The notes beneath the pieces were generated by a model, which worked only from the letters and a program-made list of their open reading frames with translations, did not search any database and was not told the DNA's origin. Positions 1 through 44,791 of a stretch of 64,000 nt of DNA are shown piece after piece. Origin of the DNA: a virus (lineage: Duplodnaviria; Heunggongvirae; Uroviricota; Caudoviricetes); IMG/VR virus record IMGVR_UViG_3300044638_005715, positions 39,398 through 103,397 of that record. One strand, 5' to 3'. How positions within the stretch are numbered: the stretch's first letter is position 1; each line of letters opens with the position of its first letter. Position numbers and translations under genes: made by a program.

Positions 1-138
1 TATTCTGCTGATAAGCAATATGATGATAGGGGTAAATATATGGCCCTATATACTAAACGCAATCCACCAGATTTTTGGCAGGAATTTTTGTCAGAAGGTG
101 AATTAAAAGTTTTTAGAAATTTAAATTCACTTACTTGA
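1..138 (+). CDS. 3' end of an upstream gene (partial, hypothetical)
   Basis: Open frame from position 1 to a TGA at 136-138; its stop overlaps the -35 box of the downstream promoter. Confidence 0.3.
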   Translation, partial: YSADKQYDDRGKYMALYTKRNPPDFWQEFLSEGELKVFRNLNSLT

Positions 139-163
139 CAAATTTAATTTTTAAATTAAAATA
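135..163 (+). promoter_or_regulatory. sigma70-like promoter (TTGACA-N16-TAAAAT) upstream of the 202 gene
   Basis: TTGACA at 135-140 and TAAAAT at 157-162; AT-rich palindrome AATTTAA/TTAAATT in the spacer. Confidence 0.45.
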
Positions 164-201
164 ACTTCATCTGTTCCATACACTTTAAATAAGGATTTAT
201 T

Positions 202-504
202 ATGTCAAAAATTCGCTACATTCACAATGGTTACTATGAGACGATGCCAATTGCATGTTTATTTCAAAATAATGAGGGCGATATTGGTATTAGTATCTGT
301 AGTACACATGATAGGCCCAATAAACAAAGGGGCCGTGAAATTGCAGAGGCACGATCATATAAGGTAGATTTGGATAGTTTTATGTCATCTATACCAAAGA
401 GAATGATTGATAATATGGAATATTTCCGTGTGCCACTTAAAGAAGTCCTTGAGAAAGAAATCAGCAAGATGAAAGAGCAATTTTTGAAACGTGTGCAGAA
501 ATGA
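202..504 (+). CDS. hypothetical protein
   Basis: ATG-initiated 100-aa ORF; its stop overlaps the start of the next gene (ATGA coupling). Confidence 0.5.
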   Translation: MSKIRYIHNGYYETMPIACLFQNNEGDIGISICSTHDRPNKQRGREIAEARSYKVDLDSFMSSIPKRMIDNMEYFRVPLKEVLEKEISKMKEQFLKRVQK

Positions 505-893
505 ACTATAAAATATTCGAGAGAGCAATCGCCCTTGCTAAAACAATGAAGGGCGATATATCTCAACGATATACAGTATTTTCATTTATTTATCGTAAAA
601 ATCAAATATATGCGGTCGGTGGCAATGATATGACTAAGACTCATACTGCCGCATATTACAATAATTATGAGTATCCATACCTACATTCTGAACTAGCGGC
701 TATTAGAGCATTTAAAGATATTGACAATTCTTATCGTTATAATTTCCTTAATATTAGATTAGACAGAAGCGGCAAACTTAGAAATTCAATGCCATGTAAA
801 TATTGCCAATCTATATTAGATTTGCATAATTTTAAATCACTCACATATTCAGTAGATAACGGATTTACTTTTAGGTATTCAAATGAAGAATGA
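501..893 (+). CDS. cytidine/deoxycytidylate-deaminase-fold (CDA-like, TadA-like) zinc deaminase
   Basis: HSE (H-x-E) followed by PCKYC (PCxxC) zinc-binding motifs, the signature of the CDA superfamily; translationally coupled to the Thg1-like gene. Confidence 0.55.
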   Translation: MNYKIFERAIALAKTMKGDISQRYTVFSFIYRKNQIYAVGGNDMTKTHTAAYYNNYEYPYLHSELAAIRAFKDIDNSYRYNFLNIRLDRSGKLRNSMPCKYCQSILDLHNFKSLTYSVDNGFTFRYSNEE

Positions 894-1698
894 TAGTTTT
901 GGCGATCGTATGAAGATGTATGAGATGGCAGAGTCTGGCCGTAAACTAATGCCAGGGATACCAATAATGGCTAGATTAGATGGTAGATGTTTTCATACCT
1001 TTTGTCAAGGAATGGAAAGACCATTTTATGAACCTCTTTCTCGTCTGATGATTGAATGTACAAAATATTTGGTGGCTGAAACACATGCATTGTGTGGATA
1101 TACACAATCAGATGAAATAACATTGACTTGGCACTATATAAATCCAAAAACAGAGCCAATTTTTAGTGGCAGAATTAGTAAAATTATATCAACACTTGCA
1201 GCTATGCAGTCAGTGTATTTCAATAAATATATGCACAACTATTTAGATGCTAAATATTGTAATAAAATAATCACATTTGATTGTAGGGTTTGGAATGTCC
1301 CGAATATTATTGAGGGGGCAAATGCATTTTTGTGGAGAGAGCAAGATGCCACAAAAAATAGTATTTCAATGGCGGCTAGATCATATTATAGTCATAAACA
1401 ATTACATAAGAAAAATGGGGCAGAAATGCAAGATATGTTGCATAAGGTAGGAGTTAATTGGAATGACTATCCATCATTTTTTAAGAGGGGCACATATCTT
1501 ATGCCTAAATTAATAAATGTTAATATTGATGAATTGAACATAGATGAGGCAAAAAAGAAATATATATTAGAATCTAATCCATCACTACAATATCAAAGAC
1601 GTATTGTAAGTGAAATGGATTTACCTCCATTAAGCCAAGTTGTTAATCGGGCAGATTTCATTTATTCTGGATCTGAGCCAAAATTATTTACACAATGA
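883..1698 (+). CDS. Thg1-like protein (tRNA-His guanylyltransferase / 3'-5' polymerase family)
   Basis: IMARLDGRCFHTF matches the Thg1 RLDGRNFHRF motif; GYTQSDEIT matches the YGQSDEYSF catalytic motif; LWREQDA matches SWRQADCH. Confidence 0.75.
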   Translation: MKNDSFGDRMKMYEMAESGRKLMPGIPIMARLDGRCFHTFCQGMERPFYEPLSRLMIECTKYLVAETHALCGYTQSDEITLTWHYINPKTEPIFSGRISKIISTLAAMQSVYFNKYMHNYLDAKYCNKIITFDCRVWNVPNIIEGANAFLWREQDATKNSISMAARSYYSHKQLHKKNGAEMQDMLHKVGVNWNDYPSFFKRGTYLMPKLINVNIDELNIDEAKKKYILESNPSLQYQRRIVSEMDLPPLSQVVNRADFIYSGSEPKLFTQ

Positions 1699-1815
1699 AA
1701 AATAAATATTCTAATTCAATTGATCATATATTAAAATTGATTCACATATTGATATTAATATGTTGATTTGGAATATCATTGGCAATGAACCTGCAATACA
1801 AATAAGAGATAATAT

Positions 1816-2028
1816 ATGCCATCAGATACAGTCAAATTTAAGAGATCCTCATACACAAAAAATATAGAGGTATGCATTGAAGATGAAGTTGCAAATAAAT
1901 TACACAATTTTGTGGATGGTGGCATAATCAATAAGATAGATAATAGATTGGAGAATATGGTTTGGTCTTATATTAATTTTAGGATATCTTATATTATAGA
2001 GTGGAATATTAATGATGAAACAAATTAA
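1816..2028 (+). CDS. hypothetical small protein
   Basis: 70-aa ORF in an otherwise gene-poor interval; weak support. Confidence 0.3.
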   Translation: MPSDTVKFKRSSYTKNIEVCIEDEVANKLHNFVDGGIINKIDNRLENMVWSYINFRISYIIEWNINDETN

Positions 2029-2164
2029 GAAACAATTATGTAATGATAAAATTTACAATCTTCAATTTTGTATATTTCCTAAATTTATTACTCCTAAAAT
2101 CAATACGAAAATTCGTGGTTTCCTTTGGGGTAATATTGTTCCGATAAACTTCAATGAAATCTTC

Positions 2165-2192
2165 TTGACATTTGATTTTTTTTCCTTATAAT
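2165..2192 (+). promoter_or_regulatory. consensus sigma70 promoter TTGACA-N16-TATAAT (early promoter)
   Basis: TTGACA 2165-2170 and TATAAT 2187-2192; 26/28 identical to the promoter at 13536-13563. Confidence 0.65.
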
Positions 2193-2198
2193 AATAAT

Positions 2199-2777
2199 AT
2201 GATTTTTTTCACATCAGATACCCATTGGAATCATACCAATATAGTTGGCCCATCCATATCTACATGGAAAGATGGATATAGGGATTTTGAATCAAAAGAG
2301 CAAATGAATAGTGTTCTAATTGATAATATTAATGCAGTGGTTTGTAAAAATGATACATTATATCACGATGGAGATTTTGCTTTTGGCAATAGGAAACTTA
2401 TTGATGATTTAAGGGCCCGTATTAATTGCTCAAATATTATATTAATATTGGGAAATCATGATTATTATGAAAAATATCCAGATATCTATAATAGAAATTT
2501 CCGTGTTGAAAAATATATGGAATTAACCATTAGTAATACACTTATTACTTTATTTCATTATCCCATTGCATCATGGCGAGATATTGGAAATGGGGCATTC
2601 AATTTGCATGGTCATTCTCATGGTACATATCCTCCTAATGGAAAACAACTAGATGTAGGTGTAGATAATCCACTTAATTTATATAAACCGTGGTCCATGG
2701 ATCAAATTTTTAACCACATGAAGAATGTTGATATTGTTACTGTAGATCATCACGTTAAGGGAACTAATAGTCGCTAA
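2199..2777 (+). CDS. calcineurin-like metallophosphoesterase
   Basis: SDTHWNH, GDFAFG and LGNHDYY motifs. The ORF track starts at TTG 2172 inside the promoter; I call the ATG at 2199 instead. Confidence 0.7.
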   Translation: MIFFTSDTHWNHTNIVGPSISTWKDGYRDFESKEQMNSVLIDNINAVVCKNDTLYHDGDFAFGNRKLIDDLRARINCSNIILILGNHDYYEKYPDIYNRNFRVEKYMELTISNTLITLFHYPIASWRDIGNGAFNLHGHSHGTYPPNGKQLDVGVDNPLNLYKPWSMDQIFNHMKNVDIVTVDHHVKGTNSR

Positions 2778-2778
2778 T

Positions 2779-4905
2779 ATGAAAATTACACACAGAACTA
2801 ACCCAGTTTTAGTAGAAAATGATAATGATGTAAAACAATTTGGTATGATTGTTGATGCCAAGTCATTTAGTATTATTGTCGATGGAATTTATAGTGACAC
2901 AATAAAGGCCATTGTTAGGGAATATGGATGTAATGCTATAGACAGCCACAAAAAGGCAAAAAATTATAGTCCATTTGACATTCATATGCCAACATATAGT
3001 CAGCCTGTATTCTATGTTAGAGATTATGGGGTGGGCCTGGATGAGGAAGACATTGTGAATGTTTTTACAGTTGCTTTTAAATCCACAAAGGAAGATAGTA
3101 ATCTGTTTACGGGCCAACTTGGTATTGGTGCAATGTGCGGTTTTGCTTATAATACAAAGTCATTCACTGTAACATCATGGAAAGATGGTATTGAATATAT
3201 ATATGCATGTTTTCTAAATGAAGATGGGTGCCCAGCATATACTAAAATTTCAGAAAAAAAATCTACAGAACCAACTGGCGTGAAAATTGAATTACCAGTT
3301 GCAAAAAAGGATATGAATAATTTTCGTGTAGATGGTAAGAAGATCATATCATGCTTTGAAATTCAACCAAGTCTATTTGGGGGGCTACAAAAGGGCGATG
3401 TTACAACAATTTTGCATGATAGTAAAACACATTTTAAATTTAATAATTGGGCATACTCTTCTAATAGTAATATAGAGGGGGCCCATGTATTAATGGGAAG
3501 TGTATTATATAAAATACCCTCAGATAATAAGTTAGCAAAATTTTCAAATTTACTAAATCATAATATTATTATATTGGCTAATATTGGTGATATTGATTTT
3601 ACGGTATCTAGAGAGCAAGCTAAATTAACCATTAGGACAGTTGAATTCATAAAAGATGCATTTAAACAGGTTGAAAATGATCTAGTGAAACTTTTTGATG
3701 ATATTTCTAGTGAAAAAAATGAATATGGGGCCATTCAGAAATGCCTAAATATACTCAATAATATGACAAGGGAACAAAGGAATATTATACATTCATTATG
3801 TATATTAAATGAGGTTAAATTTCATAGTAATAGAATACAATCATGCATGAATTCATTTACAGATTCTATCAATAAGAGTGTTCGTCGTGATGATATTCGT
3901 GTATTAGTATCTGCTAATACTATGAGGGGAATTCGTTGCGATAAGTCTTTTAATGGGCTAAATAGATGCATTAATATTCAACTGTATTTAGAGGATAAAA
4001 AGGGTTATAGAAATATTATTGGCAACAGTGTCAAATCTGATAATGATAAATTTAAAGTTGCCATCATATTTAATAGTAAACTATATACCAAGGAAAGCAT
4101 TGTAGCTTTATTAAATTGTGATGAATCTGATATTATATTGACTTCCTCGATAACTAAGCCATCAATTAATAGATCCACAATTGGTAAATCTGGAGATATT
4201 TCTAAACTTAATATATATGCAAAGCGTGCTTCAGATAAATTTATCAATATTGAAAATGCATTTAATGATAAGACAACGTATTATTACGTCGAAAGATGTG
4301 GTTATAGCTATAAGTACAAAGATATGGTAGATAATATTACTAATTTATCTATAGTATTTAAGTATATGAATACTGAACATGGCTGTCTCGATATTTACGC
4401 TGTTAAAACTAAAGCAATAAAAAATCTTGGTAAAAATTGGATAAACATTATTGATTTTGTTACTGAAAAAATTAATAAGGAAGAAGTTATAAAGTTATTG
4501 GCCAATAAAAATGTTTTAGATTCCTTATGGAGTAAGGCAAGTTATTCTTACGATGATAATCTTTATGAATTTATTAGTAAAAATCGCATGGAATTACCAA
4601 GCGATCATCGTATAATTCAATGGTTTGACTCAATGAAGGCCCTATATGTGGATCATAAAGCTGTTAAATCTTCGCAAGCATTGAATTTTCAAACACAAAT
4701 TATGAAAAAATATGCTGGAATTGATGAAAATCACAATTCTGTTAAAAAGATTTATAATATGATAATGAAGCAGTATACTGATTCTATTAAATCATTGGAA
4801 TATGCGGCAGATTATCCAATCATTATTGAAGCATTAGCAAACAATAGAAAATATAAAAATGACAAACTAAAATCACAAATAATTAAATTTTTAACTATCG
4901 CATAA
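2779..4905 (+). CDS. Hsp90/HtpG-like GHKL (Bergerat-fold) ATPase
   Basis: N-box REYGCNAIDS (compare ELISNASDA). G1 box RDYGVGL. G2 box GQLGIGAMCGFAYNTKSFTVTS (compare [21 protein letters not shown] of Hsp90). Length is 708 aa. Confidence 0.65.
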   Translation: MKITHRTNPVLVENDNDVKQFGMIVDAKSFSIIVDGIYSDTIKAIVREYGCNAIDSHKKAKNYSPFDIHMPTYSQPVFYVRDYGVGLDEEDIVNVFTVAFKSTKEDSNLFTGQLGIGAMCGFAYNTKSFTVTSWKDGIEYIYACFLNEDGCPAYTKISEKKSTEPTGVKIELPVAKKDMNNFRVDGKKIISCFEIQPSLFGGLQKGDVTTILHDSKTHFKFNNWAYSSNSNIEGAHVLMGSVLYKIPSDNKLAKFSNLLNHNIIILANIGDIDFTVSREQAKLTIRTVEFIKDAFKQVENDLVKLFDDISSEKNEYGAIQKCLNILNNMTREQRNIIHSLCILNEVKFHSNRIQSCMNSFTDSINKSVRRDDIRVLVSANTMRGIRCDKSFNGLNRCINIQLYLEDKKGYRNIIGNSVKSDNDKFKVAIIFNSKLYTKESIVALLNCDESDIILTSSITKPSINRSTIGKSGDISKLNIYAKRASDKFINIENAFNDKTTYYYVERCGYSYKYKDMVDNITNLSIVFKYMNTEHGCLDIYAVKTKAIKNLGKNWINIIDFVTEKINKEEVIKLLANKNVLDSLWSKASYSYDDNLYEFISKNRMELPSDHRIIQWFDSMKALYVDHKAVKSSQALNFQTQIMKKYAGIDENHNSVKKIYNMIMKQYTDSIKSLEYAADYPIIIEALANNRKYKNDKLKSQIIKFLTIA

Positions 4906-4917
4906 GGGTGTATATAG

Positions 4918-5985
4918 ATGAATAAAGCAGCTAAAATAATTACTAGTAATGGAATAACCCTATATTATAATGGTGGGGTCTTTATGGTTTCTAAAGATCA
5001 TGCCGCATATAATGATATGCTATCCTCACTAAAACATAATGATTATGAAAAATTTATTAAGTTATATAGTAAGACAAACCCAATGGAATGCCTCATAGAG
5101 GATAATAGTATTGTATCAGATAATACTGGATCATATTATGTTAAAAATAATAAGAGAATTTTTCTAGGAGACATCCTTAGTCAAAGATATAATGATCTAT
5201 TCGAAGGTGGATATGATGTATCTTATTTAAGGAAATTTATTGAAAATCTAGTTCAAAATACTAGTTATAATGCAATTAAAAGTCTATACGGTTTCTTGGA
5301 AGATAATGATATTCCAATCACTGATGATGGTCACTTTCTCGCTTATAAAGTAGTTGATAAGAATTATCAATCAAAAACCAAAATTAAAAATCTTAACTTA
5401 GTTTCTGGCCAATATAATGATAATCAATCTATTCATAATGGAATTGGTGAAATTATTGAATGTTTAAGGTCAGATGTTGATGATGATAGTGGTACTCCAT
5501 GTAGTTCTGGATTTCATGCGGGAGGTCTAAAATACAGTGGGCCAGGAGGTACATATTATTCAAGTGGCGATAAAGTAATTATTGTCAAAATTAATCCCAA
5601 AGATGTAGTATCTGTTCCAGAAGGGCATACTTATAAATTAAGAACATGCAAGTATGAAGTGATTAAAGATTATACAGATGTACTACCTACAATAGCAACT
5701 GATGAATGTTATTCTGAAAGTAGTAATAATGATAGTCCAAAATTCTTTACAAAATATAATAAATGTCATTATGTGGGTGAATTAATAACATTTAAATATC
5801 GCGGGAAAACAAGACATGGTATAATCAAAGATATTGAGTCAGATAAAAAGCGTGTACTTATTCAATTGACTTCACAAGATATAGGTTTTATCGATGGCGA
5901 TAAAAATTTAAGAAGTTTTATAGTTGAAAAAATGCAAGAGTTAGCAAATTTGTCATTTTATTATAAAATAATTAATAAAACATGA
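4918..5985 (+). CDS. hypothetical protein, translationally coupled to the GHKL ATPase and guaC
   Basis: 355-aa ORF with RBS AAGGGTG; C-terminal small beta-rich (SH3/KOW-like) region; no recognisable catalytic motif. Confidence 0.5.
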   Translation: MNKAAKIITSNGITLYYNGGVFMVSKDHAAYNDMLSSLKHNDYEKFIKLYSKTNPMECLIEDNSIVSDNTGSYYVKNNKRIFLGDILSQRYNDLFEGGYDVSYLRKFIENLVQNTSYNAIKSLYGFLEDNDIPITDDGHFLAYKVVDKNYQSKTKIKNLNLVSGQYNDNQSIHNGIGEIIECLRSDVDDDSGTPCSSGFHAGGLKYSGPGGTYYSSGDKVIIVKINPKDVVSVPEGHTYKLRTCKYEVIKDYTDVLPTIATDECYSESSNNDSPKFFTKYNKCHYVGELITFKYRGKTRHGIIKDIESDKKRVLIQLTSQDIGFIDGDKNLRSFIVEKMQELANLSFYYKIINKT

Positions 5986-6947
5986 AAAAAACATATTCAT
6001 TTAATGATGTACATATAGTTCCAAGATCTAGTGAGCTAGATAGTAGGGCCCAGCCCATTCTGGAAGTATCATATGTAACAAAACATAGTAAGAGAACATT
6101 TAATGGTATGCCACTTATAGTATCCAATATGGATTATATTGGAACATATAAAATGGCATCAGCATTAGCACCTTATAAAATATGGGTGGCTTTAAATAAA
6201 TTTCAAAATATAGTTACCTATAATTACACATATAATAATGTATTTTTTACATTAGGAATGAATGATAAGGATAAAACTAAATTCGACATATTAAAAGCTC
6301 GCCAATCACCAATATGCCTAGATGTAGCTAATGGTTATATCTATAAGTTTTTGGATTATGTAAAATGGGTTAGGGATCAATGCCCCTCATCTATTATTAT
6401 GGCTGGTAATGTATGTACGCCAGAAGGTGTTGAAAATTTAATTAAAGCTGGGGCAGATATTGTTAAGGCTGGAATTGGCGGCGGATCGTTTTGTTTAACT
6501 AGAAATAAAACTGGGGTCGGCATTCCACAATTTACAGTGGCTCAAGAATGCGGCTGGGCAGCTAATGAAATGGGGGCCCTATGCTGTTCAGACGGAGGTG
6601 TCCGCGAAATCGGAGATATAGCTAAGGCATTAGGTTCTGGTTCTCACTTAGTGATGGCCGGATCACTATTTGCTGGTTATGACGAAAATGAAGTTGAATG
6701 GCAAGAAGATCCAATAAGTGGAAAAATAATGCCATTTTACGGAATGTCATCAGCCATGGCTAATAAGAAGTATTTCGATGGATTGAAAGATTATAGGACT
6801 AGTGAGGGCCGTGAGGATTATATTAAGTCTAAGGGGCCCATTTCTGCTTTAGTTCAGGATATAAGGGGCGGCTTGGCATCATGCTGTACTTATACAAACA
6901 CTAAACACATTGAGAATTTAAAGAAAAATTGCACATTTTATAATTGA
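5982..6947 (+). CDS. guaC: GMP reductase (IMPDH/GuaC family, no CBS domains)
   Basis: N-terminal FNDVHIVP and SNMDYIG motifs; active-site GIGGGSFCLTR...GVGIPQ. Length 321 aa fits GuaC rather than IMPDH. Confidence 0.7.
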   Translation: MKKTYSFNDVHIVPRSSELDSRAQPILEVSYVTKHSKRTFNGMPLIVSNMDYIGTYKMASALAPYKIWVALNKFQNIVTYNYTYNNVFFTLGMNDKDKTKFDILKARQSPICLDVANGYIYKFLDYVKWVRDQCPSSIIMAGNVCTPEGVENLIKAGADIVKAGIGGGSFCLTRNKTGVGIPQFTVAQECGWAANEMGALCCSDGGVREIGDIAKALGSGSHLVMAGSLFAGYDENEVEWQEDPISGKIMPFYGMSSAMANKKYFDGLKDYRTSEGREDYIKSKGPISALVQDIRGGLASCCTYTNTKHIENLKKNCTFYN

Positions 6948-9191: not shown

Positions 9192-9408
9192 AGAACTATT
9201 TTATTTTATAGCACATAATTTTAATACAGAAAATGATGAAAGCCATAAACTATATTCTGATATGTATAAGCAACAACCCGTCTTAGAACTGATGACAAAA
9301 TTAGTTATTGATTCAGATATGTCGCATGATACTAAGGATGGATTTTGTAAGGGCATGTTACAAGTTTGGCACCTTTTAAACCAGCAGGACATTTTAGATA
9401 ATTTATGA
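9160..9408 (+). CDS. hypothetical small protein
   Basis: 82-aa ORF. Confidence 0.3.
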   Translation: MRIIMLPVVSEELFYFIAHNFNTENDESHKLYSDMYKQQPVLELMTKLVIDSDMSHDTKDGFCKGMLQVWHLLNQQDILDNL

Positions 9409-10172
9409 TTAATTTTATTATACAAGATGGAGTATTTTCCGATGAGCAGGAAGAATTAATACAAATTTTAAATGATAGAAAAATTCCATATGAATTAAAT
9501 ATGCCATACAGCATTATTGCCAATGGTAATTATGTTGTTCGTGGCTCAACTGAATTTATAACTGGTTTCGATAGGATGTTTGGAGAATATTGTCATATTA
9601 TTCCATTGAATTTAAAAACATACACATATAGTAAATATGTAAGATCTGTAAGGGCCCTCAATCAGGATTATATTCTTCTTCCTTATCATAAATTATATGA
9701 TGATTTTACATGTAATCATGTTGTTAATTTATTCGAGGGTGAACGAATATTTATGAGACCTAATTCTGGTCGAAAAATATTTGCAGGTACTACCTTATAT
9801 AAACGCACATGGCTAAAAGAATTAGATATTATTAGGTCAATTCCAAATACGTCAATTAAAGATAATACAATGGTGGTATTATCATCTTATAAGAAGCTAG
9901 ATGCGGAATTCAGGATATTTATTCATAATAAACGTATAGTAACATATAGCCAGTATGAAGGATATTATGATGAAATAAATTTCTCTACTTGCCTAGATGA
10001 AATAAGTTATCTTATACGAAATTTGAAAACAACATGCGTAGATGTTGTCGATGTTGGACTGTTTAATCGTAAATTTTACATAATTGAAAGAAATAGCCCG
10101 ATGTCTTCTGGGTGGTATGACATGGATTATCATAAAATTATTGATTGCTTGGAAAATTTCTTTAAAGAATAG
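9405..10172 (+). CDS. hypothetical protein, possibly ATP-grasp-like
   Basis: C-terminal IIERNSPMSSGW resembles the ATP-grasp E-x-N-x-x-PG motif; weak. Confidence 0.4.
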   Translation: MINFIIQDGVFSDEQEELIQILNDRKIPYELNMPYSIIANGNYVVRGSTEFITGFDRMFGEYCHIIPLNLKTYTYSKYVRSVRALNQDYILLPYHKLYDDFTCNHVVNLFEGERIFMRPNSGRKIFAGTTLYKRTWLKELDIIRSIPNTSIKDNTMVVLSSYKKLDAEFRIFIHNKRIVTYSQYEGYYDEINFSTCLDEISYLIRNLKTTCVDVVDVGLFNRKFYIIERNSPMSSGWYDMDYHKIIDCLENFFKE

Positions 10173-10574: not shown

Positions 10575-11693
10575 ATGATTAATATTCAAGATCATAAGTG
10601 GAAAAAAAAATATCCCCTAACAGACCAGAATGCTTTTATTGCACTTGTTGATGTTATGGGCGATGATAATGCAATCGTTCAGGCCGCAAGAACATCATTT
10701 GATGGTGATGCACCTTATGGAATAGCTATTTCCGATAAGGTAAAGAAATGGGCGGAAAAAAAATTATATATTAATTTAGACCATGCCCAATCTATATCTA
10801 AAAATAGCAACGGTATTACTATTCATGGAATAGAAGAAGACTATGAATATTATACTAATAATGAATATTATAAATCTATCTATGGTATATATGAAAAACA
10901 ATTAATTGAGGATAGGCATTTAACAAGATATCTGATGAACCACCAACATTCTACACCATTTGAAATGGTTGTAGTTAAATTTATGGTGCAGGTTCCAATG
11001 GATTGTTGGAGGCAGTGGGTAAGACACCGAATGGCATCAATAAATGAATATTCGACAAGATATACTGAGGCACTAGATTTCTTTCAGGTAACTAATCAGA
11101 GGGAATGGAGGACACAATCAAAGGATAATAAACAGGGTTCATCGGGTTACTTAGAAACATGGCCAGAAAATTGGACAATAAATACAAACTCTAACGTGAT
11201 TCATATTCCCGGAGAAGCTGCAAAATGTTATGGTGCAGGACAATCACCAATGCCTAAAACAGTCGGTGAATATCTTTCAACAGAAGAAGAAAAGTTTCAC
11301 AAATATGCAAAAAAACTTTATAAAGAACGCCTTGATTTAGGAATTGCTAGGGAACAAGCACGAAAAGATTTACCATTAAGCACATATACAAGAGCATATT
11401 GGAAATCAGATTTAAGAAACATATTTAATTTCTTAAAATTAAGAATGGACTCACATGCTCAATTAGAAATCAGGCAGTTTGCTAATGCGATGTTTGATAT
11501 TATCAAGCCTCTATTTCCTGTTGCGTGTGAAGCATTTGAGGACTACGTCCTTCATGCTAAAAGCTTTTCTCGCATGGAAATGGAAGAACTGCGATCAATT
11601 ATCTCTCATTTCATTGATCAGGGATTTGAAATTAACAAGCCCGCCTCCATGACTGATCGTGAATGGAAGGAATTTATAGATAAGATATCATAA
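10575..11693 (+). CDS. thyX: flavin-dependent thymidylate synthase ThyX
   Basis: Exact ThyX signature RHRMASINEYSTR (RHRxxSxxxxSxR); RBS AGAGGA. Confidence 0.8.
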   Translation: MINIQDHKWKKKYPLTDQNAFIALVDVMGDDNAIVQAARTSFDGDAPYGIAISDKVKKWAEKKLYINLDHAQSISKNSNGITIHGIEEDYEYYTNNEYYKSIYGIYEKQLIEDRHLTRYLMNHQHSTPFEMVVVKFMVQVPMDCWRQWVRHRMASINEYSTRYTEALDFFQVTNQREWRTQSKDNKQGSSGYLETWPENWTINTNSNVIHIPGEAAKCYGAGQSPMPKTVGEYLSTEEEKFHKYAKKLYKERLDLGIAREQARKDLPLSTYTRAYWKSDLRNIFNFLKLRMDSHAQLEIRQFANAMFDIIKPLFPVACEAFEDYVLHAKSFSRMEMEELRSIISHFIDQGFEINKPASMTDREWKEFIDKIS

Positions 11694-16262: not shown

Positions 16263-17074
16263 TTTATACTGGGGCCTTTTCTATAGGTTGGAATTATTTT
16301 GACGGACTCCAACAATGGCAAATATATAATTTATATAATATGCAAAAATATTGTGATCGGCACGATATTGAATTAAGAGTAATAGATAATTCAAATAAGG
16401 AATTATCATCTTTATTTTCCTATGCAAGAGAAAAAAGTAATTATAAAGCTGATTCATGGAATATAGCAACATTATCTAGTATCATAGCGTTAAATGATTT
16501 TTCTAAACGTAACGATGATAAATTTTTATGGTTAGATCTTGACTTTGTTATAACTGATCATAAGTTAGATATATTTAAATATATTGATGAATATCATATA
16601 TTGATTGAACTATGGTATAAAACAATATTTAATGAAAAGAAGGAAAAATTTTTCTCATATCTGAATAGATATTTGCCGCAAAATGCACAATATATTTTCC
16701 CACTATTATGTTACAGTGGTATTTTTGGATGTGATACAATACGAGCTAAAGGCATAATTGATTTTATGCATAGTCATTCAGTATATCCAACATATAGTTT
16801 TATTGATGATATGATTGAATTATATAAAGGAGATAAACATTTTATATCAGATGAATGTATAATGGAATTTGTTTGCAACAATTATGCTGGAAGTGAAGGT
16901 AATGGTAGAATAAATGTTCCAGTTAATATTAAAGATTATATTAATATTGAACTAGTTACAGAAGATAATATGGATTCAGTAAATGCAATATCTGATGATT
17001 TTTTTGGATATCACTTTGCTAGTGGTAGTAAAATCAATATACCTAAATTCTTTCGAGACAACAAACTATGTTAA
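16250..17074 (+). CDS. putative nucleotide-diphospho-sugar transferase (GT-A-like)
   Basis: WLDLDFVITD, a DxD-like motif. Confidence 0.35.
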   Translation: MSYVIYTGAFSIGWNYFDGLQQWQIYNLYNMQKYCDRHDIELRVIDNSNKELSSLFSYAREKSNYKADSWNIATLSSIIALNDFSKRNDDKFLWLDLDFVITDHKLDIFKYIDEYHILIELWYKTIFNEKKEKFFSYLNRYLPQNAQYIFPLLCYSGIFGCDTIRAKGIIDFMHSHSVYPTYSFIDDMIELYKGDKHFISDECIMEFVCNNYAGSEGNGRINVPVNIKDYINIELVTEDNMDSVNAISDDFFGYHFASGSKINIPKFFRDNKLC

Positions 17075-18135
17075 ATTTAAATATTCAGGCCCCAATATGT
17101 CATACGGGATATGGTCAGGTTGGCTATAACTTATCATTAGAATTAAGCAAAATAGCTAATGTTACTATATTTCCAATTGGGCCCGTTCAGGAATTTCCGC
17201 AATCAAATATTATCAATAACCTTATAATAGGCAATAAGAATATAGAAAATATAATGGAGGCCCCATCTATTAAGATATGGCACCAGAATGATTTATTTTC
17301 TCATATATCTAGATCACAAAGGGTGGGCTTTCCAATATTTGAATTAGATAGGTTTAGTGATATTGAAATAATGAGCCTTAAATCATGTGATGTCATTTAT
17401 GTATGCTCAAAATGGGCCCAAAATATAATTCATAATCACCTACCTAATAAAAATGTAGTTGTTGTCCCGCTTGGTGTTGATACTGATATTTTTTACCCTT
17501 CTAGTGTAAAAAGAAAAAATACCATATTTCTCAATTGTGGTAAATGGGAAATTAGAAAGGGGCATGATGTTTTATTACATGCATTTAATAAGGCATTTTC
17601 ACCAAAAGATAATGTAGAATTATGGATGATGTGTGAAAATATGATAACCCCACAAGTGAATAATGAGTGGATTAAATTATATAAGGAAAGTCCACTGGGT
17701 AATAAGGTAAGAATCATACCATATCAGCAGTCACATATAGATGTGGCTAATATAATGAAACAGGCTGATTGCGGTGTTTTTCCAGCGAGGGCGGAAGGTT
17801 GGAATTTAGAATTATTAGAAATGATGGCATGTGGAAAAAATGTTATAACTACTAATTATGCTGGCCATACTGAATTTTGCAACAATGATAATTCCAGACT
17901 AATTGAAATTACAGAGACTGAATCTGCATATGATGGAATATGGTTTAATCATCAGGGTTCGTGGGCGTCTATTAAAAATAATGAAATGGAAGCTTTAATA
18001 ACACACATGAGAAATATTCACAATGAAAAATTATCTAATGGGTACGTTGAAGGAAATATTAGTGGAATTATGACATCTCGTACATTTTCTTGGAAAAATT
18101 CTGCTTTTTTGGCTTCATCACTATATCATAAATAA
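17068..18135 (+). CDS. glycosyltransferase family 4 (GT-B)
   Basis: GKWEIRKGHDVLL together with EGWNLELLEMMACGKNVITT (the GT4 E-x7-E region). Confidence 0.6.
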   Translation: MLNLNIQAPICHTGYGQVGYNLSLELSKIANVTIFPIGPVQEFPQSNIINNLIIGNKNIENIMEAPSIKIWHQNDLFSHISRSQRVGFPIFELDRFSDIEIMSLKSCDVIYVCSKWAQNIIHNHLPNKNVVVVPLGVDTDIFYPSSVKRKNTIFLNCGKWEIRKGHDVLLHAFNKAFSPKDNVELWMMCENMITPQVNNEWIKLYKESPLGNKVRIIPYQQSHIDVANIMKQADCGVFPARAEGWNLELLEMMACGKNVITTNYAGHTEFCNNDNSRLIEITETESAYDGIWFNHQGSWASIKNNEMEALITHMRNIHNEKLSNGYVEGNISGIMTSRTFSWKNSAFLASSLYHK

Positions 18136-21246: not shown

Positions 21247-21774
21247 ATGAGACAAGACAAAATATCTAATTTTATGCAATTGGCTTTTACAATTGCTAAT
21301 AGGTCCCCAGACCCAAAAACTAAATGTGGTTCAATAATAACAGATAATCGTGGAAGAATCATAGGATCGGGCTATAATGGAATGCCCCGAGATACTGATG
21401 AAGAAGCATTTCCATGGGAACGCGGCGAAGGGCAAGAAGACCCATTATCCAAGTACCCATATGTACACCACGCGGAAAAAAATGCCATTCTAAATTGTGT
21501 TGTTACGCCACATTATATTGGCGGTGCAATTTGTTATGTTAATGGCAAATGTTGCTTTAGATGTTTAAATGACCTATGGCAATTTGGAATTCATACAGTA
21601 TATCAGGGCAATGTATTACCCAGAATGGTTGACGATAATCATAAAAAAATTATTGATCGCATTATATCTAAAACGGGTATTAATATTATCAACGTAGATT
21701 GTTCCATATATAATTGGTATGAAGACATCATGAGGCAGCAAAATGAGTATTTTCGACAAGAGAACAGCCTTTAA
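21247..21774 (+). CDS. dCMP deaminase
   Basis: HHAEKNAIL and CCFRCLN zinc motifs (HAE...CxxC) of deoxycytidylate deaminases. Confidence 0.7.
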   Translation: MRQDKISNFMQLAFTIANRSPDPKTKCGSIITDNRGRIIGSGYNGMPRDTDEEAFPWERGEGQEDPLSKYPYVHHAEKNAILNCVVTPHYIGGAICYVNGKCCFRCLNDLWQFGIHTVYQGNVLPRMVDDNHKKIIDRIISKTGINIINVDCSIYNWYEDIMRQQNEYFRQENSL

Positions 21775-23674
21775 GCCCTTTGAATATCCTGATGTTATTA
21801 AATTTGTGGATGCTATAAATCACAGTTATTGGCTTCACTCGGAATGGAATTTCATTTCTGACATACAGGATTTTAACACAAAATTAAGTGAGAAGGAAAA
21901 AAATGCAATAAAAAATGCATTATTGGCCATATCTCAAATAGAGGTTAGTGTTAAAAGCTTTTGGGGCAAATTACATGACACATTACCAAAACCAGAATTT
22001 AATGCTGTTGGTGCCACATTTGCGGAATCTGAGTGTTTCGATAACCAAACAGAAGTGTTAACATCTGATGGTTGGATTAAATTTGAGGAATTATCAAATC
22101 TTCATGAAGTGGCACAGTATGATATTGATACCAAACACATAACATTTGAAAAGCCACTAGAAGTAATAAAGAAACCATATAATGGAAAAATGCATATTTA
22201 CCAGGGGAGAAGGACGGACTTATGTGTGACTCCAAACCATGAATTATTACTAATAAATCCACACAGCAAAAAAATCAATAAGAAAAAATCAATAAGCGGT
22301 GCTTGGGGAAGAAACTTTTATTATCCTAGCTCTGGATATGGTGTCGGCACATTAGAATTTACAGATATTGACAGATTGTTAATAGCCATTCAGGCCGATG
22401 GATCTTTATACGGTGCATGTCCAAGTGGTACTGGTAGAAAAGATTTTTGTTTTGAGTTATCTAAAAATAGAAAAATAAAGAGAATAAAATATATACTTCA
22501 AAAACTACAAATAAATTATACAGAATCCATAAGATCTAGTAATAATCATACTATTATTAGTGGTGTATTACCAGATTATATTGATGTGGACAAGATAAAG
22601 AACTTTGACTATATTGATGTCACAAAAATATCACCGGAATTTTGTAGGAATTTTATTGAAGAATTATTAAATTGGGATGCCTCATTAAAAACATATTATA
22701 ATTCAAATGAAAAAGCTGTTGATAAAGTTCAAATCATAGCAACTCTCGGGGGATTTACATGCTCCAAAGGTATCAATAGAACCAAAGAGCAAAACATGTT
22801 AAGAAAAAACCCAGACGGAAACATTAGAAAATCATCTAAAACTCAATATTCTGTAAATATAACAAACACAGACAAAATTGTTTATCCACATAGAAAAGAA
22901 ATAGATTATGATGATATGGTATATTGTGTTACAATGTCCAAGGGAACAGTTGTTACTAGAAGGGGATCTAGTGTTTCTATACAAGGTAATTGTAGACACG
23001 AAAGGGCTTATAGCCACTTGTTAGAAGTATTAGATCTTAATCATGATTTTGAGATTCTATTACAGAATCCAGTAATTCAGGGCCGAGTAGATTATTTAAC
23101 TAAATATCTTAAAGGGGCCGCCGATAATAATAAAGAAGCATATACATTAACACTTACTTTATTTTCCCTTTTCATTGAGAATGTTAGTTTATTCAGCCAA
23201 TTTGCAATTATTAAATCATTTAACAAATATAAGAATGTGTTGAAGGACATAGACAATGTTGTGCAAGCAACACAACAGGAAGAACAGCTACACGCTAAGT
23301 TTGGGGCCTACATTGTTAATCAAATTAAATTAGAGTATCCTGAGTGGTTCGATGAAGAATTTTATGCCAAAATTAAAAGGGCCTGCCACAAAGCTTATGA
23401 TGCCGAGTCCAAGATTATTGATTGGATTTTTGAATTAGGCGATTTAGAATTTATAACAGCAAAACAAATTAAAGAATTTATTAAGAATAGGTTTAATCTA
23501 TCATTAGATATGATTGGTTGCGATCCTGTTTTTGATATTGATTCAGAGATTATTAAACAGATGAAATGGTTTGATGAGGAAATATATACTACAAATAATA
23601 TAGATTTCTTCAATAAGAAAAGTACAAATTATAGTAAAAAGATTGATTCTATTAATTCAGGGGATTTATTTTAA
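21743..23674 (+). CDS. nrdB: ribonucleotide reductase small subunit NrdB interrupted by an intein
   Basis: Extein FAESE|...|CRHERAYSHLL restores the E-x-x-H iron ligands. C-terminal DFFNKKSTNYSK is the R1-binding tail. Internal LLIAIQADGS matches LAGLIDADG. Confidence 0.75.
   Translation: MSIFDKRTAFKPFEYPDVIKFVDAINHSYWLHSEWNFISDIQDFNTKLSEKEKNAIKNALLAISQIEVSVKSFWGKLHDTLPKPEFNAVGATFAESECFDNQTEVLTSDGWIKFEELSNLHEVAQYDIDTKHITFEKPLEVIKKPYNGKMHIYQGRRTDLCVTPNHELLLINPHSKKINKKKSISGAWGRNFYYPSSGYGVGTLEFTDIDRLLIAIQADGSLYGACPSGTGRKDFCFELSKNRKIKRIKYILQKLQINYTESIRSSNNHTIISGVLPDYIDVDKIKNFDYIDVTKISPEFCRNFIEELLNWDASLKTYYNSNEKAVDKVQIIATLGGFTCSKGINRTKEQNMLRKNPDGNIRKSSKTQYSVNITNTDKIVYPHRKEIDYDDMVYCVTMSKGTVVTRRGSSVSIQGNCRHERAYSHLLEVLDLNHDFEILLQNPVIQGRVDYLTKYLKGAADNNKEAYTLTLTLFSLFIENVSLFSQFAIIKSFNKYKNVLKDIDNVVQATQQEEQLHAKFGAYIVNQIKLEYPEWFDEEFYAKIKRACHKAYDAESKIIDWIFELGDLEFITAKQIKEFIKNRFNLSLDMIGCDPVFDIDSEIIKQMKWFDEEIYTTNNIDFFNKKSTNYSKKIDSINSGDLF
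22034..22990 (+). mobile_element. intein (319 aa, LAGLIDADG homing-endonuclease domain) within nrdB
   Basis: Starts at Cys (CFDNQ...) and ends ...SIQGN followed by a +1 Cys; penultimate residue is Gly rather than His. Confidence 0.65.
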
Positions 23675-33733: not shown

Positions 33734-34730
33734 AAAATTAATTGAAAATTTAAATATTATATTGGAACATTTTGAGATAGAATATAGCGAAACTAATACG
33801 AGGTTCTTTTTCTCATGCCCAGCACATAACGGAGATAATAATAATGCCTGCACAATATATAAAAATACAGGGGTATGGAATTGCCATACGGCATTGTGTC
33901 ATGAAAAATACAAAAAAACTATAATAGGTTTTATTAGGGGCGTATTATGTTCTCGATTAGACAAAGATATAAGTTTTTTGGATTCTGTATCTTATGGGGC
34001 TAATCTTGTTGGATTAGATATAAAAAGTGACATAGATTTAGTAGATTTTAATAAGCAGCAGAAACTAGCCAACTATAATAAATTATATGATATTTTCATG
34101 AAAACAAATGATGGTGTCGGAGAGCCAATACATGATAATATATTAGAAGTGATAAAAATACCATCGGCATATTACATAAGAAGGGGTTATACAGAGGCTA
34201 TTCTAAGAAAATTTAATGTTGGTGATTGTTATGATAGATCTAACCCAATGTTTAATAGGGCCGTTGTCCCTATATATGATGTTAATAAAAATTATGTTGG
34301 ATGTTCTGCTAGGGCCACCACAGAAGGTTATAAGCCAAAATGGAAAAATACAGAAGGTATGCTAAAAACCAATTATATTTATGGTTTAGATCAAGCATAT
34401 GATGAAATTAAAAGAACTGGTGTTATTTTCCTTGTAGAGGGGCCCGGAGATTTGTGGAGAATGCATGAAGCAAACTATAATAACACTGGGGCTTTATTCG
34501 GTGTCGCACTAACGGAGGCTCAACTAATTTTATTAGAAAGCCTTCCAATTTCTGATATTATATTAGCTACAGATTCTGATAAGGCGGGTAATGAAGCGGC
34601 CGAAAAAATTAAAAAACAACTTCAAAGAAAATTTAATGTAAGAAGACTTTTGACAAACTATAAAGATATCGGCGAAAATCAATCTGATAAATTAAAGGAG
34701 ATAATTGATAAAGTATGGTTAAAATTTTAG
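33693..34730 (+). CDS. DnaG-type DNA primase (zinc finger plus TOPRIM)
   Basis: CPAHNGDNNNAC...C..C zinc-binding; TOPRIM LVEGPGDLWRMHE and DSDKAGNEAAEK. Confidence 0.7.
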   Translation: MYMISNNQISLISKKLIENLNIILEHFEIEYSETNTRFFFSCPAHNGDNNNACTIYKNTGVWNCHTALCHEKYKKTIIGFIRGVLCSRLDKDISFLDSVSYGANLVGLDIKSDIDLVDFNKQQKLANYNKLYDIFMKTNDGVGEPIHDNILEVIKIPSAYYIRRGYTEAILRKFNVGDCYDRSNPMFNRAVVPIYDVNKNYVGCSARATTEGYKPKWKNTEGMLKTNYIYGLDQAYDEIKRTGVIFLVEGPGDLWRMHEANYNNTGALFGVALTEAQLILLESLPISDIILATDSDKAGNEAAEKIKKQLQRKFNVRRLLTNYKDIGENQSDKLKEIIDKVWLKF

Positions 34731-35515
34731 CTTTTGCTGGGGCGAAACAATCGGGCAAAAATACATGTAGTAATTTTCTGCATGGATTCCAATTAAAATC
34801 TTATAATGTTATAGATAATTTCTATATTCTTAATGATGGACAATTAATAACAGAAAATAAAATTGATGGAAATACCTCTCAAAAGGGCCTGCTTGATGTA
34901 AATAGAAAAGATGATGAATTTAGTGAATGGGCTTCGGAAGATATGTGGCCCCTAATTAAAAACTATTCATTTGCTGATGCATTAAAATCACTCTGTATAC
35001 ACTTATTTAATATCCCTTATAATTGTGTTTATGGCACTGATGAAGAAAAAAACACTATTATACCGTGGCTATTATGGGAAAATATGCCTGGAATATTGGC
35101 TTGTGAAAATCATAATTTAACAGATGAGCAATTAGCCTTATCGGGTTTGCAATATCATAAATCAGGTCCAATGACTGCCAGAGAATTTATGCAATTTTTT
35201 GGTACTGATATTATGAGGAAAATGTATGAAAATATTTGGTGTGATAAACTAATTAAGGACATTAAAAGCGAAGATCCTGGCATTGCCGTTATTTCAGATT
35301 GTAGATTTCGTAATGAATGCGAATATATCAAATCACATGGTGGCAAAATTATTCATTTGACTCGACGACCATTTCAAGACGGCCATAAGAGTGAAAATGA
35401 TTTAGTTGGTTATAATGGATTTGATGGTGTTATAGATAATGAAAATATGAATATTGGTGATTCTTGCGATGAATTATTAAAAATTATTCAATCATGGGGG
35501 TGGATGGGATGCTAG
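34715..35515 (+). CDS. deoxynucleoside monophosphate kinase (T4 gp1-like)
   Basis: MVKILAFAGAKQSGKNTCSNFL resembles the T4 dNMP kinase N-terminus MKLIFLSGVKRSGKDTTADFI. Confidence 0.65.
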   Translation: MVKILAFAGAKQSGKNTCSNFLHGFQLKSYNVIDNFYILNDGQLITENKIDGNTSQKGLLDVNRKDDEFSEWASEDMWPLIKNYSFADALKSLCIHLFNIPYNCVYGTDEEKNTIIPWLLWENMPGILACENHNLTDEQLALSGLQYHKSGPMTAREFMQFFGTDIMRKMYENIWCDKLIKDIKSEDPGIAVISDCRFRNECEYIKSHGGKIIHLTRRPFQDGHKSENDLVGYNGFDGVIDNENMNIGDSCDELLKIIQSWGWMGC

Positions 35516-37479: not shown

Positions 37480-37947
37480 ATGAAAGAATTAACATTAGAA
37501 GAAAAATCAGTAAATTATGATACGTTTCGCCACATTGAAAGGGTTAGAAATTTAATAAATACATGTATTAGGAATCTGTTAACCAGGGCCGAAAAACATG
37601 ACCAATCTAAACTTGAAGATCCAGAAGTTTCTTATTTTTTAAAATATACAGCACTCTTAAAGACATGTACATATAATAGTGATCAATATAAATCTTATTT
37701 ACAAGAGATGAAACCAGCATTAGATCATCATTATGCTAATAATTCTCATCATCCAGAGCACTATAAGGATGGAATTAATGATATGAATTTATTAGATTTA
37801 ATGGAGATGTTATGTGATTGGAAAGCTGCCAGCGAGAGACATAATGACGGAAATATTCGTAAATCAATAGAAGTCAATGTACAACGATTTGGAATATCGC
37901 CACAATTAACACGCATTTTAGAAAATACAGTAGATTTATTATCATGA
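37480..37947 (+). CDS. hypothetical His-rich protein (possible HD-like hydrolase)
   Basis: HHYANNSHHPEHY cluster; weak. Confidence 0.35.
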   Translation: MKELTLEEKSVNYDTFRHIERVRNLINTCIRNLLTRAEKHDQSKLEDPEVSYFLKYTALLKTCTYNSDQYKSYLQEMKPALDHHYANNSHHPEHYKDGINDMNLLDLMEMLCDWKAASERHNDGNIRKSIEVNVQRFGISPQLTRILENTVDLLS

Positions 37948-38411
37948 TTATAGCAGGTACGGGCCATAGACCAAAATATTGCCCATGTAAATACAATGAA
38001 TCCCATCCATGGCTGGCGGAATTAAAAAATAAACTACGTCTAGCTTTGGATGAAGTACGCCCAGTCGCTATAATTAGTGGCATGGCGATTGGTTGGGACA
38101 CTTGGTTGGCGGAAGTCTCCCTTAGTTCAAATATCCCACTTCATTGTTACGTGCCATTCAAGGGCCAGGGCAAAACTTGGCCCAGTGCCTCATATAAAAA
38201 ATATTTAGATATTTTAGATAGGGCGGCACTAGTTAAGCACACATCTGAAAATTATACACCAGATTGTTTTTTTGTGCGTGATAAAGCAATGATTGACGAT
38301 TGTTCTATTGTTTTTTCACTTCTTGACCCATCTATCAATAGTGGTGGGACATATTATACAGTTCAATACGCTAAAGAAAAGAATAAACCTATTACAAATT
38401 TTTGGTTCTAA
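37944..38411 (+). CDS. SLOG-superfamily protein (YpsA/DUF1273-like)
   Basis: N-terminal IIAGTGHRP, then ISGMAIGWDTW and YYTVQYA; pattern of YpsA-family Rossmann-like proteins. Confidence 0.5.
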   Translation: MIIAGTGHRPKYCPCKYNESHPWLAELKNKLRLALDEVRPVAIISGMAIGWDTWLAEVSLSSNIPLHCYVPFKGQGKTWPSASYKKYLDILDRAALVKHTSENYTPDCFFVRDKAMIDDCSIVFSLLDPSINSGGTYYTVQYAKEKNKPITNFWF

Positions 38412-42159: not shown

Positions 42160-42235
42160 ATACAGTGGAAAGGTATATGATCTATCTGTTGAAAATACAA
42201 GTTGTTATAATGTAGAGGGTTTAGGAGTTCATAAT
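42131..42235 (+). mobile_element. split intein C-terminal half (Int-C)
   Basis: Ends HN followed by a +1 Ser. Confidence 0.65.
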
Positions 42236-44494: not shown

Positions 44495-44791
44495 ATGAAT
44501 AATTGTATATTTTCTGGATATGTATATGAAAAACCAGAATTACAAATGGTTGACGGTGTTAGCTATTGTAACTTTTCTCTACTAGTCAACGAGGAAAGAA
44601 AGGGTAATAAAATAGAAACTATTATAGATTGTGAAATTTGGGATTCTGGAGCGGAAGCATTTGTTAATCTAGCTAACGGTGGGGATGAGGTATTCATTGA
44701 ATCATCTGCTCGCAATACAGAATTTGATGAAGAAGAATATGTTATATTCCGTGTAAATAAATTTAAGATCATTTTTGGAAATAATAAATGA
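44495..44791 (+). CDS. small OB-fold (SSB-like) protein
   Basis: FSGYVYEKPELQ...IDCEIWDSGAEAF resembles the SSB L45/beta pattern. Confidence 0.4.
   Translation: MNNCIFSGYVYEKPELQMVDGVSYCNFSLLVNEERKGNKIETIIDCEIWDSGAEAFVNLANGGDEVFIESSARNTEFDEEEYVIFRVNKFKIIFGNNK

Follow-up and report, generated by a model that had tools for sequence, protein, structure and literature searches.

Bacterial Thg1-like proteins (TLPs) have been shown to repair the 5′ ends of tRNAs in vitro (PMC3061083). Their activity, a Watson–Crick-templated addition of nucleotides in the 3′–5′ direction, restores 5′-truncated tRNAs of any identity (PMC3061083, PMC4820378). A Thg1 homolog in phage 201phi2-1 was noted in 2010 (PMC2904730), and a survey of jumbo phages in 2021 counted Thg1 as one of the nucleotidyltransferases by which RNA ends are restored (PMC7824862, section 3.4.9). 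Thg1 homologs of phages and bacteria have, together with calcineurin-like phosphatases, already been placed in RNA repair (PMC7824862, PMC2904730). Here we describe a TLP encoded by an uncultured freshwater phage. Its gene is on a stretch of 64,000 nt (IMG/VR record IMGVR_UViG_3300044638_005715, positions 39,398 to 103,397), which we call the window, and it lies between genes for a small zinc deaminase and a calcineurin-like metallophosphoesterase (MPE). An earlier annotation of this DNA, referred to below as the original prediction, read the three genes as one candidate tRNA editing and repair module. Our analysis favors a TLP that acts in RNA repair with the MPE as a probable partner and the deaminase outside the unit.

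Two described kinds of systems counter RNA breakage in a comparable way, T4 Pnkp/Rnl1 and bacterial Pnkp/Hen1. As at this locus, a ligase or polymerase is combined with a phosphoesterase, and the phosphatase domain of Clostridium thermocellum Pnkp is a calcineurin-type MPE. By contrast, these systems heal and seal breaks in the anticodon loop and include a polynucleotide kinase (PNK), whereas no kinase was found in the window, the polymerase here would act on the 5′ terminus, and there is no fixed operon.

The closest known proteins are other phage TLPs. A tblastn search found TLP homologs in 161 phage records, most of them annotated as tRNA-His guanylyltransferase, and the records include phages of Bacillus, Prevotella, Caulobacter, Mycobacterium, Pseudomonas, Burkholderia, and Vibrio. 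The proteins of 201phi2-1 (gp319), BcepSaruman (gp332), and Vibrio phage D181 are of the same family as the window TLP (PHROG 4717; 41–52% identity) and have the same annotation and the same proposed role in restoring 5′ ends (PMC7824862). This type of phage gene is already known and has already been proposed for tRNA 5′-end repair, and its novelty had been overstated. What differs is the setting. Most known phage TLPs are from jumbo phages (>200 kb) or Bacillus myophages. The TLP gene of this uncultured freshwater phage is not part of a tRNA array or of an Rnl1/PNK island but is directly upstream of the MPE gene, rIIA, and rIIB.

Identity and proposed action of the Thg1-like protein

The original prediction recognized the TLP by two catalytic motifs, RLDGRCFHTF and QSDE, and profile searches bore this out. 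The match to PF04446 scored 97.7 bits (cut-off 29.2; E = 6.5e-28) and covered profile positions 2–130 of 130, and the match to phrog_4717 ('tRNA-His guanylyltransferase') was at 3.9e-77. The best solved relative was BtTLP of Bacillus thuringiensis (4kgk; E = 8.5e-39 over residues 4–209), compared with 4.9e-09 to 3e-05 for yeast, Candida, and human Thg1. R31, D33, G34, Q75, S76, D77, and E78 were invariant in an alignment of 11 phage TLPs. The RxDG and QSDE motifs, which bind metal, are common to the phage protein and BtTLP (4KGK/4KGM), and their carboxylates align; both proteins are standalone and of similar size. In eukaryal Thg1, the HINNLYN motif reads the anticodon (PMC6471195). At this position (DCHINNLYN in Candida) the window TLP has DATKNSI, as in BtTLP, and the two have DA[ST]KNSISM in common there. 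Because of the PF04446 and phrog_4717 matches, the rank of BtTLP, the invariant carboxylates, and the replacement of HINNLYN, the gene product is, as judged from its sequence, a bona fide bacterial-type TLP and not a eukaryal tRNA-His-specific Thg1. The phage TLP differs from BtTLP by a C-terminal extension of ~60 residues (210–271), which is kept in other long phage TLPs and which BtTLP does not have. A separate 274-kb viral contig (L009) carries tandem genes for Thg1-like paralogs (5171–5980 and 6001–6786) whose identity to the window TLP is 35% and 48%.

By analogy with BtTLP, we infer that the TLP would activate the 5′-monophosphate of a tRNA that has been shortened at its 5′ end and would then add the missing nucleotides in the 3′–5′ direction, with the 3′ strand of the acceptor stem as template. 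The predicted repair of tRNA 5′ ends agrees with the activity characterized for the bacterial type (PMC3061083). The TLP would do this as a member of a loosely clustered phage RNA-repair toolkit, along with an RNA ligase with an OB domain that is encoded 2.6 kb upstream of it. The MPE probably also belongs to the toolkit as an end-processing partner, either a phosphatase or cyclic phosphodiesterase or an end-trimming nuclease. In this role it might clear phosphates that block the end, or cut back damaged nucleotides ahead of resynthesis. The small deaminase would be outside the TLP unit. We hold this RNA-repair reading, taken as a whole, with moderate confidence.

Genes that accompany phage TLPs

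We compared the neighborhoods of TLP genes from 80 IMG/VR loci plus annotated phages, which formed 72 groups at 75% TLP identity. All ORFs neighboring the TLP genes were clustered, and the counts given here are groups with the neighbor within 8 kb. The neighborhoods were highly variable overall. tRNA genes were the commonest neighbors (16 of the 72 groups), and RNA ligases were found in 10 groups, RlaP in 8, TnpB in 8, phrog_547 MPEs in 7 (within 500 nt in 4), canonical dCMP deaminases in 6 (none of them close), Acb1-like 2H phosphoesterases in 5, and PNK in 2. At least one of a tRNA gene, RNA ligase, RlaP, or PNK occurred in 27 of the 72 groups. Phage TLP genes are near these four kinds of genes far more often than they are near any other protein family, an enrichment that is qualitative because the counts have no matched control at random positions. 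The clearest island, that of Vibrio phage D181, encodes, in 10 kb, a CCA-adding enzyme, an RlaP-like nucleotidyltransferase, TLP, Rnl1, PNK, and an MPE that is 28% identical to the window MPE. TLP genes were often found at the edge of tRNA arrays (L001, L029/L030, L034, L036, L061, L084, L087, and others), and as many as 28 tRNA genes were counted in a flank.

A second use for a phage TLP would be the routine maturation of phage tRNAs, either at 5′ ends cut from packed arrays or by providing G-1 on tRNA-His. A role in tRNA maturation has been put forward in phage genome papers (PMC5259590, PMC6292376), and it fits with the 11 groups that have tRNA genes within 1.5 kb of the TLP gene, often in arrays of 5–28. 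In the huge phage LR745206, the TLP gene is among tRNA genes and has tRNA synthetase-like and TilS-like ORFs nearby (assigned from translations), and in L020, a relative of the window phage, a tRNA-Arg gene is 5 kb from the TLP gene. However, 56 of the 72 TLP loci have no tRNA gene within 8 kb, and the RNA ligase, RlaP, and PNK neighbors point to the repair of broken RNA. No tRNA gene was found in the window (64 kb) or within 10 kb upstream of it. We consider routine maturation to be an unlikely function of this TLP.

The MPE is calcineurin-like, as originally described (PF00149 at 31.5 bits with a cut-off of 21.5, 2.9e-07; phrog_547 at 9.5e-47). Its only solved relative is the uncharacterized Aquifex protein aq_1665 (PDB 1xm7; 7.8e-06). 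The window MPE is of the same family as the aq_1665-like phosphoesterases (1XM7, PHROG 547) and has the same five metal-binding motifs (DxH, GD, GNH[DE], H, and GHxH), which are present as SDTHWNH, DGDFAFG, GNHDY, FHYP, and HGHSHG. A link to TLPs is seen in a minority of the aq_1665-like proteins.

Two relatives of the window phage, L017 and L020, encode proteins that are 61–62% (deaminase), 59–63% (TLP), and 58–62% (MPE) identical to those of the window. Both have kept the order RNA ligase, denV-like gene, orf100, deaminase, VWA-domain gene, TLP, MPE, rIIA, and rIIB. The TLP and MPE genes are separated by 118 nt in L017 and by 13 nt in L020. In L011, an unrelated T4-like contig with a gp23-type capsid gene, the gap is 17 nt, and the TLP is 42% and the MPE 37% identical to the window proteins. 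These data indicate that TLP and MPE are a conserved pair that in the window is split by a 500-nt insertion carrying a consensus promoter. Across related and unrelated genomes we did not find a conserved order and adjacency of deaminase, TLP, and MPE; TLP–MPE adjacency alone recurs. Of the proposed three-gene tRNA module, the TLP and probably the MPE are supported as parts of an RNA-repair context, and the deaminase is not a conserved member of the unit.

The operonic adjacency in L017, L020, and the unrelated L011 makes the MPE a plausible partner of the TLP. D181 and L083 each have an MPE gene within an RNA-repair island, and calcineurin-like domains are occasional RNA-end phosphatases in jumbo phages (PMC7824862). 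In four jumbo-phage loci, TLPs are coupled to the unrelated Acb1-like 2H phosphoesterases, and this makes a phosphoesterase partner a recurrent theme. Judged by the tight pairing in two lineages, the two islands, and the Acb1-like analogy, an end-processing partnership between MPE and TLP is plausible.

It could also be that the three genes are unrelated neighbors in a dense early region, with the deaminase used in the metabolism of (modified) nucleotides, the MPE having a general role that does not concern RNA, and only the TLP acting on tRNA. MPE homologs occur in 1420 phage records, most of them without Thg1, and because they far outnumber the TLP carriers the MPE family has a wider role. 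Genes generally overlap at their starts and stops across the window, the window is rich in genes for nucleotide metabolism and glycosyltransferases, and the variability of TLP neighborhoods also fits with this reading. By contrast, the TLP–MPE gap is 13–17 nt in two lineages that have TLPs of only ~42% identity, and the MPEs in the islands of D181 and L083 are among RNA-repair genes. That the three genes are functionally unrelated is, in our judgment, somewhat unlikely.

Several points weigh against the RNA-repair reading that we favor. The MPE family is very common, yet it is near a TLP in only 7 of the 72 groups, so the pairing could reflect the synteny of one lineage plus one coincidence. 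In the window itself, the MPE gene is 500 nt from the TLP gene and has its own promoter-like site. The neighbor counts have the limitation noted above. No tRNA gene is near the window TLP, which counts against repair as it does against maturation, and PNK (searched for with the D181 protein as query), RlaP, and CCA-adding enzyme were not detected in the 64-kb window. We know of no antiphage nuclease that shortens the 5′ ends of tRNAs. In the literature searched, we found no biochemical or genetic work on any phage TLP.

In three jumbo phages, the gene for an Acb1-family 2H phosphoesterase (PF23474, 1.3e-29) overlaps or abuts the start of the TLP gene (L092:7495–7968, L097:7549–8004, and L102:7513–7974). 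In another locus such a gene is 300 nt upstream of TLP (L085:7198–7683), and in L050 (15089–16200) an Acb1-like gene is followed immediately by a phrog_547 MPE gene. The Acb1-family enzyme may act in RNA-end repair, or the TLP may connect to anti-CBASS functions. Taken further, the phage TLP would act with a phosphoesterase not on tRNA but on other 5′ ends or on nucleotide immune signals. TLP4 of Dictyostelium reportedly has an essential role that apparently does not involve tRNA. The palm domain of TLPs is related to those of GGDEF and Cas10 cyclases (PMC2904730, PMC12657218), and the genes coupled to TLP in the three jumbo phages, or 300 nt from it in L085, are for Acb1-like anti-CBASS phosphodiesterases. 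However, the window TLP is 40–45% identical over the catalytic core to BtTLP, which repairs tRNA 5′ ends in vitro, and cyclase-type activity is known for no member of the Thg1 family. In addition, 2H phosphoesterases also process RNA 2′,3′-cyclic ends (PMC7824862). We regard a role away from tRNA as highly improbable.

The small deaminase

The deaminase fold with HxE and PCxxC motifs that had been proposed for the gene upstream of TLP is present. The motifs are HSE (residues 62–64) and PCKYC (98–102), and the AF2 model (pLDDT 91.9) has a CDA fold (three-layer alpha/beta/alpha). Whereas the TLP and MPE passed the Pfam cut-offs for Thg1 and Metallophos, the deaminase was below that for dCMP_cyt_deam (PF00383; 20.2 bits with a cut-off of 25). 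A search of IMG/VR with the single protein gave no relatives. A full HMMER scan gave a family of 648 cluster representatives, nearly all 120–140 aa long. PF00383 was matched by 61 of 62 family members at E ≤ 0.01, the best at 2.1e-09. In the alignment of these 62 members, N42, H62, E64, P98, C99, and C102 were invariant, which indicates intact zinc ligands and an intact catalytic glutamate. The protein is a real zinc deaminase that is probably active, and it may act on nucleic acid.

The type of deaminase was approached with both profiles and folds. The family profile matched the dCMP deaminase of cyanophage S-TIM5 (4P9C) at 2.1e-09 and the bi-DCD of chlorovirus PBCV-1 (7FH4) at 4.5e-05, compared with 0.05 for TadA. 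In Foldseek searches of the model, the top ranks were cytidine and blasticidin-S deaminases (TM ~0.6), and the best viral models (BFVD) were small CMP/dCMP-type deaminases of giant viruses and phages (TM 0.71–0.76); M1HJE6, at rank 3, may be chloroviral. Profile and fold methods thus disagree on the sub-family. The model ends in a beta-hairpin and has no helix past the last strand, unlike TadA, where the C-terminal helix helps bind tRNA. Given the dCMP-type nucleotide deaminases of phages and chloroviruses as best relatives and the missing TadA-like helix, the idea that TLP has a nucleic-acid deaminase as its neighbor is not supported.

The S-TIM5 and PBCV-1 enzymes share with the small deaminase a size class of ~130–140 aa and the H-x-E/PCxxC zinc site, at 16–24% identity. 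Unlike them, the family has an insertion of ~10 residues (NIRxxxxGxxxxS) before PCxxC, is strongly basic, and in the window phage occurs alongside a canonical dCMP deaminase. The isoelectric points (pI) of the family are 8.3–10.7 (median 9.7), compared with 6.0–7.7 for eight canonical phage dCMP deaminases. No pairwise similarity was seen between the small deaminase and the canonical enzyme of the window (HSELAAI in the former, HHAEKNAI in the latter). Both kinds are likewise encoded in L111. The T4 Cd/ComEB type of dCMP deaminase is characterized by a HAExNA helix and a context of dUMP supply, and the small deaminase has neither. We rejected it as the sole or housekeeping dCMP deaminase, since the canonical gene is beside that for ribonucleotide reductase (RNR). 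The canonical gene was missed by the small-deaminase family hidden Markov model and a motif scan and surfaced in the Pfam hits. The RNR small-subunit ORF begins within this gene, which encodes CCFRC where PCxxC is usual. The RNR ORF has a ~400-aa N-terminal extension with weak matches to RNR, thymidylate-synthase, and PhoH PHROGs, and it may be a fusion or contain an intein-like insertion.

Translational coupling of the deaminase and TLP genes had been proposed, and the two ORFs do overlap by 11 nt. Conservation of this arrangement was not seen. A VWA-domain gene (333 aa) is between them in L017 and L020, joined in L017 by a DUF7873 gene, so one or two genes and 1–2.2 kb intervene. The deaminase gene abuts TLP in the window because the separating genes of the related phages are absent, and the overlap is lineage-specific. 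Moreover, the deaminase family was absent from 68 of the 72 TLP neighborhoods and was present only in the window lineage and in L089, where it is 5 kb away.

Contexts of the family were taken from contigs that encode its members. One member is a single small gene downstream of an RNA ligase (L107:3335–5034) and another is 4 kb from one (L105:2026–7393). The remaining contexts include AAA/VWA-metallopeptidase genes, SpoU, MPE, and rIIA/B (L104), a T7-like phage with ThyX and MPE (L108), and a deoxyribosyltransferase-like gene with glycosyltransferases (L111). RNA ligases with the PHA02142 OB domain are 0.3–4 kb upstream of small deaminases in three unrelated lineages (L107, L105, and L002:6540–10393). 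VWA proteins adjoin the deaminase in four contexts (L017:4100–5101, L020:8240–9244, L104:4395–6985, and L089:11907–13211). In L017 and L020 this is the 333-aa protein directly downstream, and in L104 and L089 it is a DUF2201_N metallopeptidase/VWA-like protein immediately upstream; in L104, an AAA ATPase-like gene comes before it.

These results bear on the original idea that deaminase, TLP, and MPE form a module on tRNA, in which base editing or repair would be combined with the rebuilding of 5′ ends against host defenses. The 11-nt overlap and the common promoter-like site of the first two genes fit with it, as do the uniformly basic family and the RNA ligases within 4 kb of family members in the unrelated L105 and L107. 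In addition, with a canonical dCMP deaminase present, as also in L111, dUMP supply does not depend on the small enzyme. On the other side, adjacency is lost even among relatives at 60% identity, the deaminase is near TLP in so few groups, its best sequence matches and best viral structural matches are nucleotide deaminases, the model has no helix past the last strand, and the other contexts are T7-like or neighborhoods of nucleotide and DNA modification. We consider a three-gene tRNA module decidedly unlikely. The small deaminase is a non-conserved neighbor of TLP, with no specific link to tRNA.

Layout of the locus and the phage

Positions 1–6000 of the window are a run of tightly packed genes that are all on the same strand (Table 1). 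The remainder of the denV-like gene is upstream of position 1, outside the window. The orf100–deaminase–TLP transcript likely starts at the predicted promoter between the denV-like gene and orf100. No match to orf100 was found in Pfam, PHROG, or NCBIfam, and its homologs are only within the same phage lineage, in L017 and L020 (39–46% identity) plus two further metagenomic proteins. A conserved partnership of orf100 with the deaminase was rejected; in L105, L107, and L111, the deaminase gene is preceded by small ORFs that have no relation to orf100. The two orphan ORFs of the TLP–MPE spacer have no homologs in any locus compared. The spacer gave no significant Rfam match (a sub-threshold miRNA at E 0.74) and had a fold z-score of 0.27, and a search for structured RNA or tRNA across positions 1–3000 gave nothing significant.

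The MPE gene had been credited with its own consensus promoter. Promoter-like matches in positions 1–3000 were not above those in shuffled sequence (19 compared with 22.4), and among them only the perfect TTGACA-16-TATAAT stands out. The site is there, and its assignment to the MPE gene is less clear. The MPE start is most likely the ATG placed by gene callers and not the TTG at 2172, and this ATG is 6 nt past the −10 hexamer. An MPE mRNA made from this promoter would have no leader; alternatively, the promoter would mainly serve rIIA and rIIB. These two genes, which by their context would be an early, counter-exclusion block, come directly after the MPE gene and are followed by a GMP-reductase-like gene.

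Table 1. Positions of features in and next to the window; the RNA ligase gene is given in the coordinates of L002.
Feature	Position	Strand	Evidence or remark
RNA ligase	L002:6540-7793		outside the window; PF09414 1.3e-12; PHA02142 OB domain, N-terminal
denV-like (Pyr_excise) gene, 3′ end	1..135	+	tblastn match of L002:9066-9638; Pfam PF03013 3.9e-05
Predicted promoter TTGACA-16-TAAAAT	135..162	+	consensus match 11/12; 40 nt upstream of orf100
orf100	202..504	+	basic protein, pI 9.1; stop overlaps deaminase start by ATGA
Small zinc deaminase	501..893	+	130 aa, basic
TLP	883..1698	+	271 aa
TLP–MPE spacer	1699..2198	+	500 nt; absent from L017 and L020
Orphan ORF in spacer	1816-2028	+	70 aa
Orphan ORF in spacer	2012-2191	+	59 aa
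Predicted sigma-70 promoter TTGACA-16-TATAAT	2165..2192	+	perfect consensus match 12/12; inside the spacer
MPE	2199..2777	+	ATG start at 2199
rIIA	2779-4905	+	phrog_612 1.9e-99
rIIB	4918-5985	+	phrog_609 5.4e-46
R2K ATP-grasp protein	9405-10172
ThyX-like ORF	10575-11693		372 aa, unusually long
GT1 glycosyltransferase	17068-18135
Canonical dCMP deaminase	21247..21774	+	175 aa, pI 6.5; PF00383 2.4e-16, 59.9 bits
RNR small-subunit ORF	21743-23674		643 aa
dNMP kinase	34715-35515
YpsA-SLOG protein	37944-38411
DnaE-type polymerase, first ORF	39765-41228		PHP and N-terminal part
Unannotated ORF	41311-42159		282 aa; between the DnaE-type ORFs
DnaE-type polymerase, second ORF	42131-44485		core, finger, HHH
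GT1 glycosyltransferase	44788-46398
GT1 glycosyltransferase	46391-47509
GT1 glycosyltransferase	47427-48461
Large ORFs	57629-63908	−	no PHROG match

The locus is part of an early block of counter-defense and nucleotide-metabolism genes. The phage has a DnaE-type polymerase, rIIA/rIIB, and 31% G+C, and its contig is at least 137 kb long. A nucleotide search of positions 1–6000 against 50,697 phage records gave no match, which indicates that the phage has no close isolate, and identical copies of the locus were found in several freshwater metagenomes. The polymerase, which is encoded in two ORFs, is at most 35% identical to proteins of isolates by tblastn (~30% over the full length). A T4-like phage was rejected because the replicative polymerase is DnaE-like. 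The sign of the GC skew switches near 56 kb, where gene orientation turns from the + to the − strand. At least four GT1 glycosyltransferases are encoded in the window. Together with the ThyX-like, dNMP kinase, YpsA-SLOG, and R2K ATP-grasp proteins, they hint at DNA hypermodification, which could bear on the role of the second, small deaminase.

This locus adds a TLP from an environmental phage of medium size, encoded close to rIIA/rIIB. Neither this context nor the small-deaminase family overturns current views. Phage TLPs cluster with two unrelated kinds of phosphoesterases as well as with tRNA genes, RNA ligases, and RlaP. This strengthens the case that restoring tRNA 5′ ends is part of the conflict between phage and host over translation, and it nominates the phrog_547 MPE as a candidate partner of TLP. 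The most interesting loose end is the basic mini-deaminase of phages, a large family that coexists with canonical dCMP deaminases.

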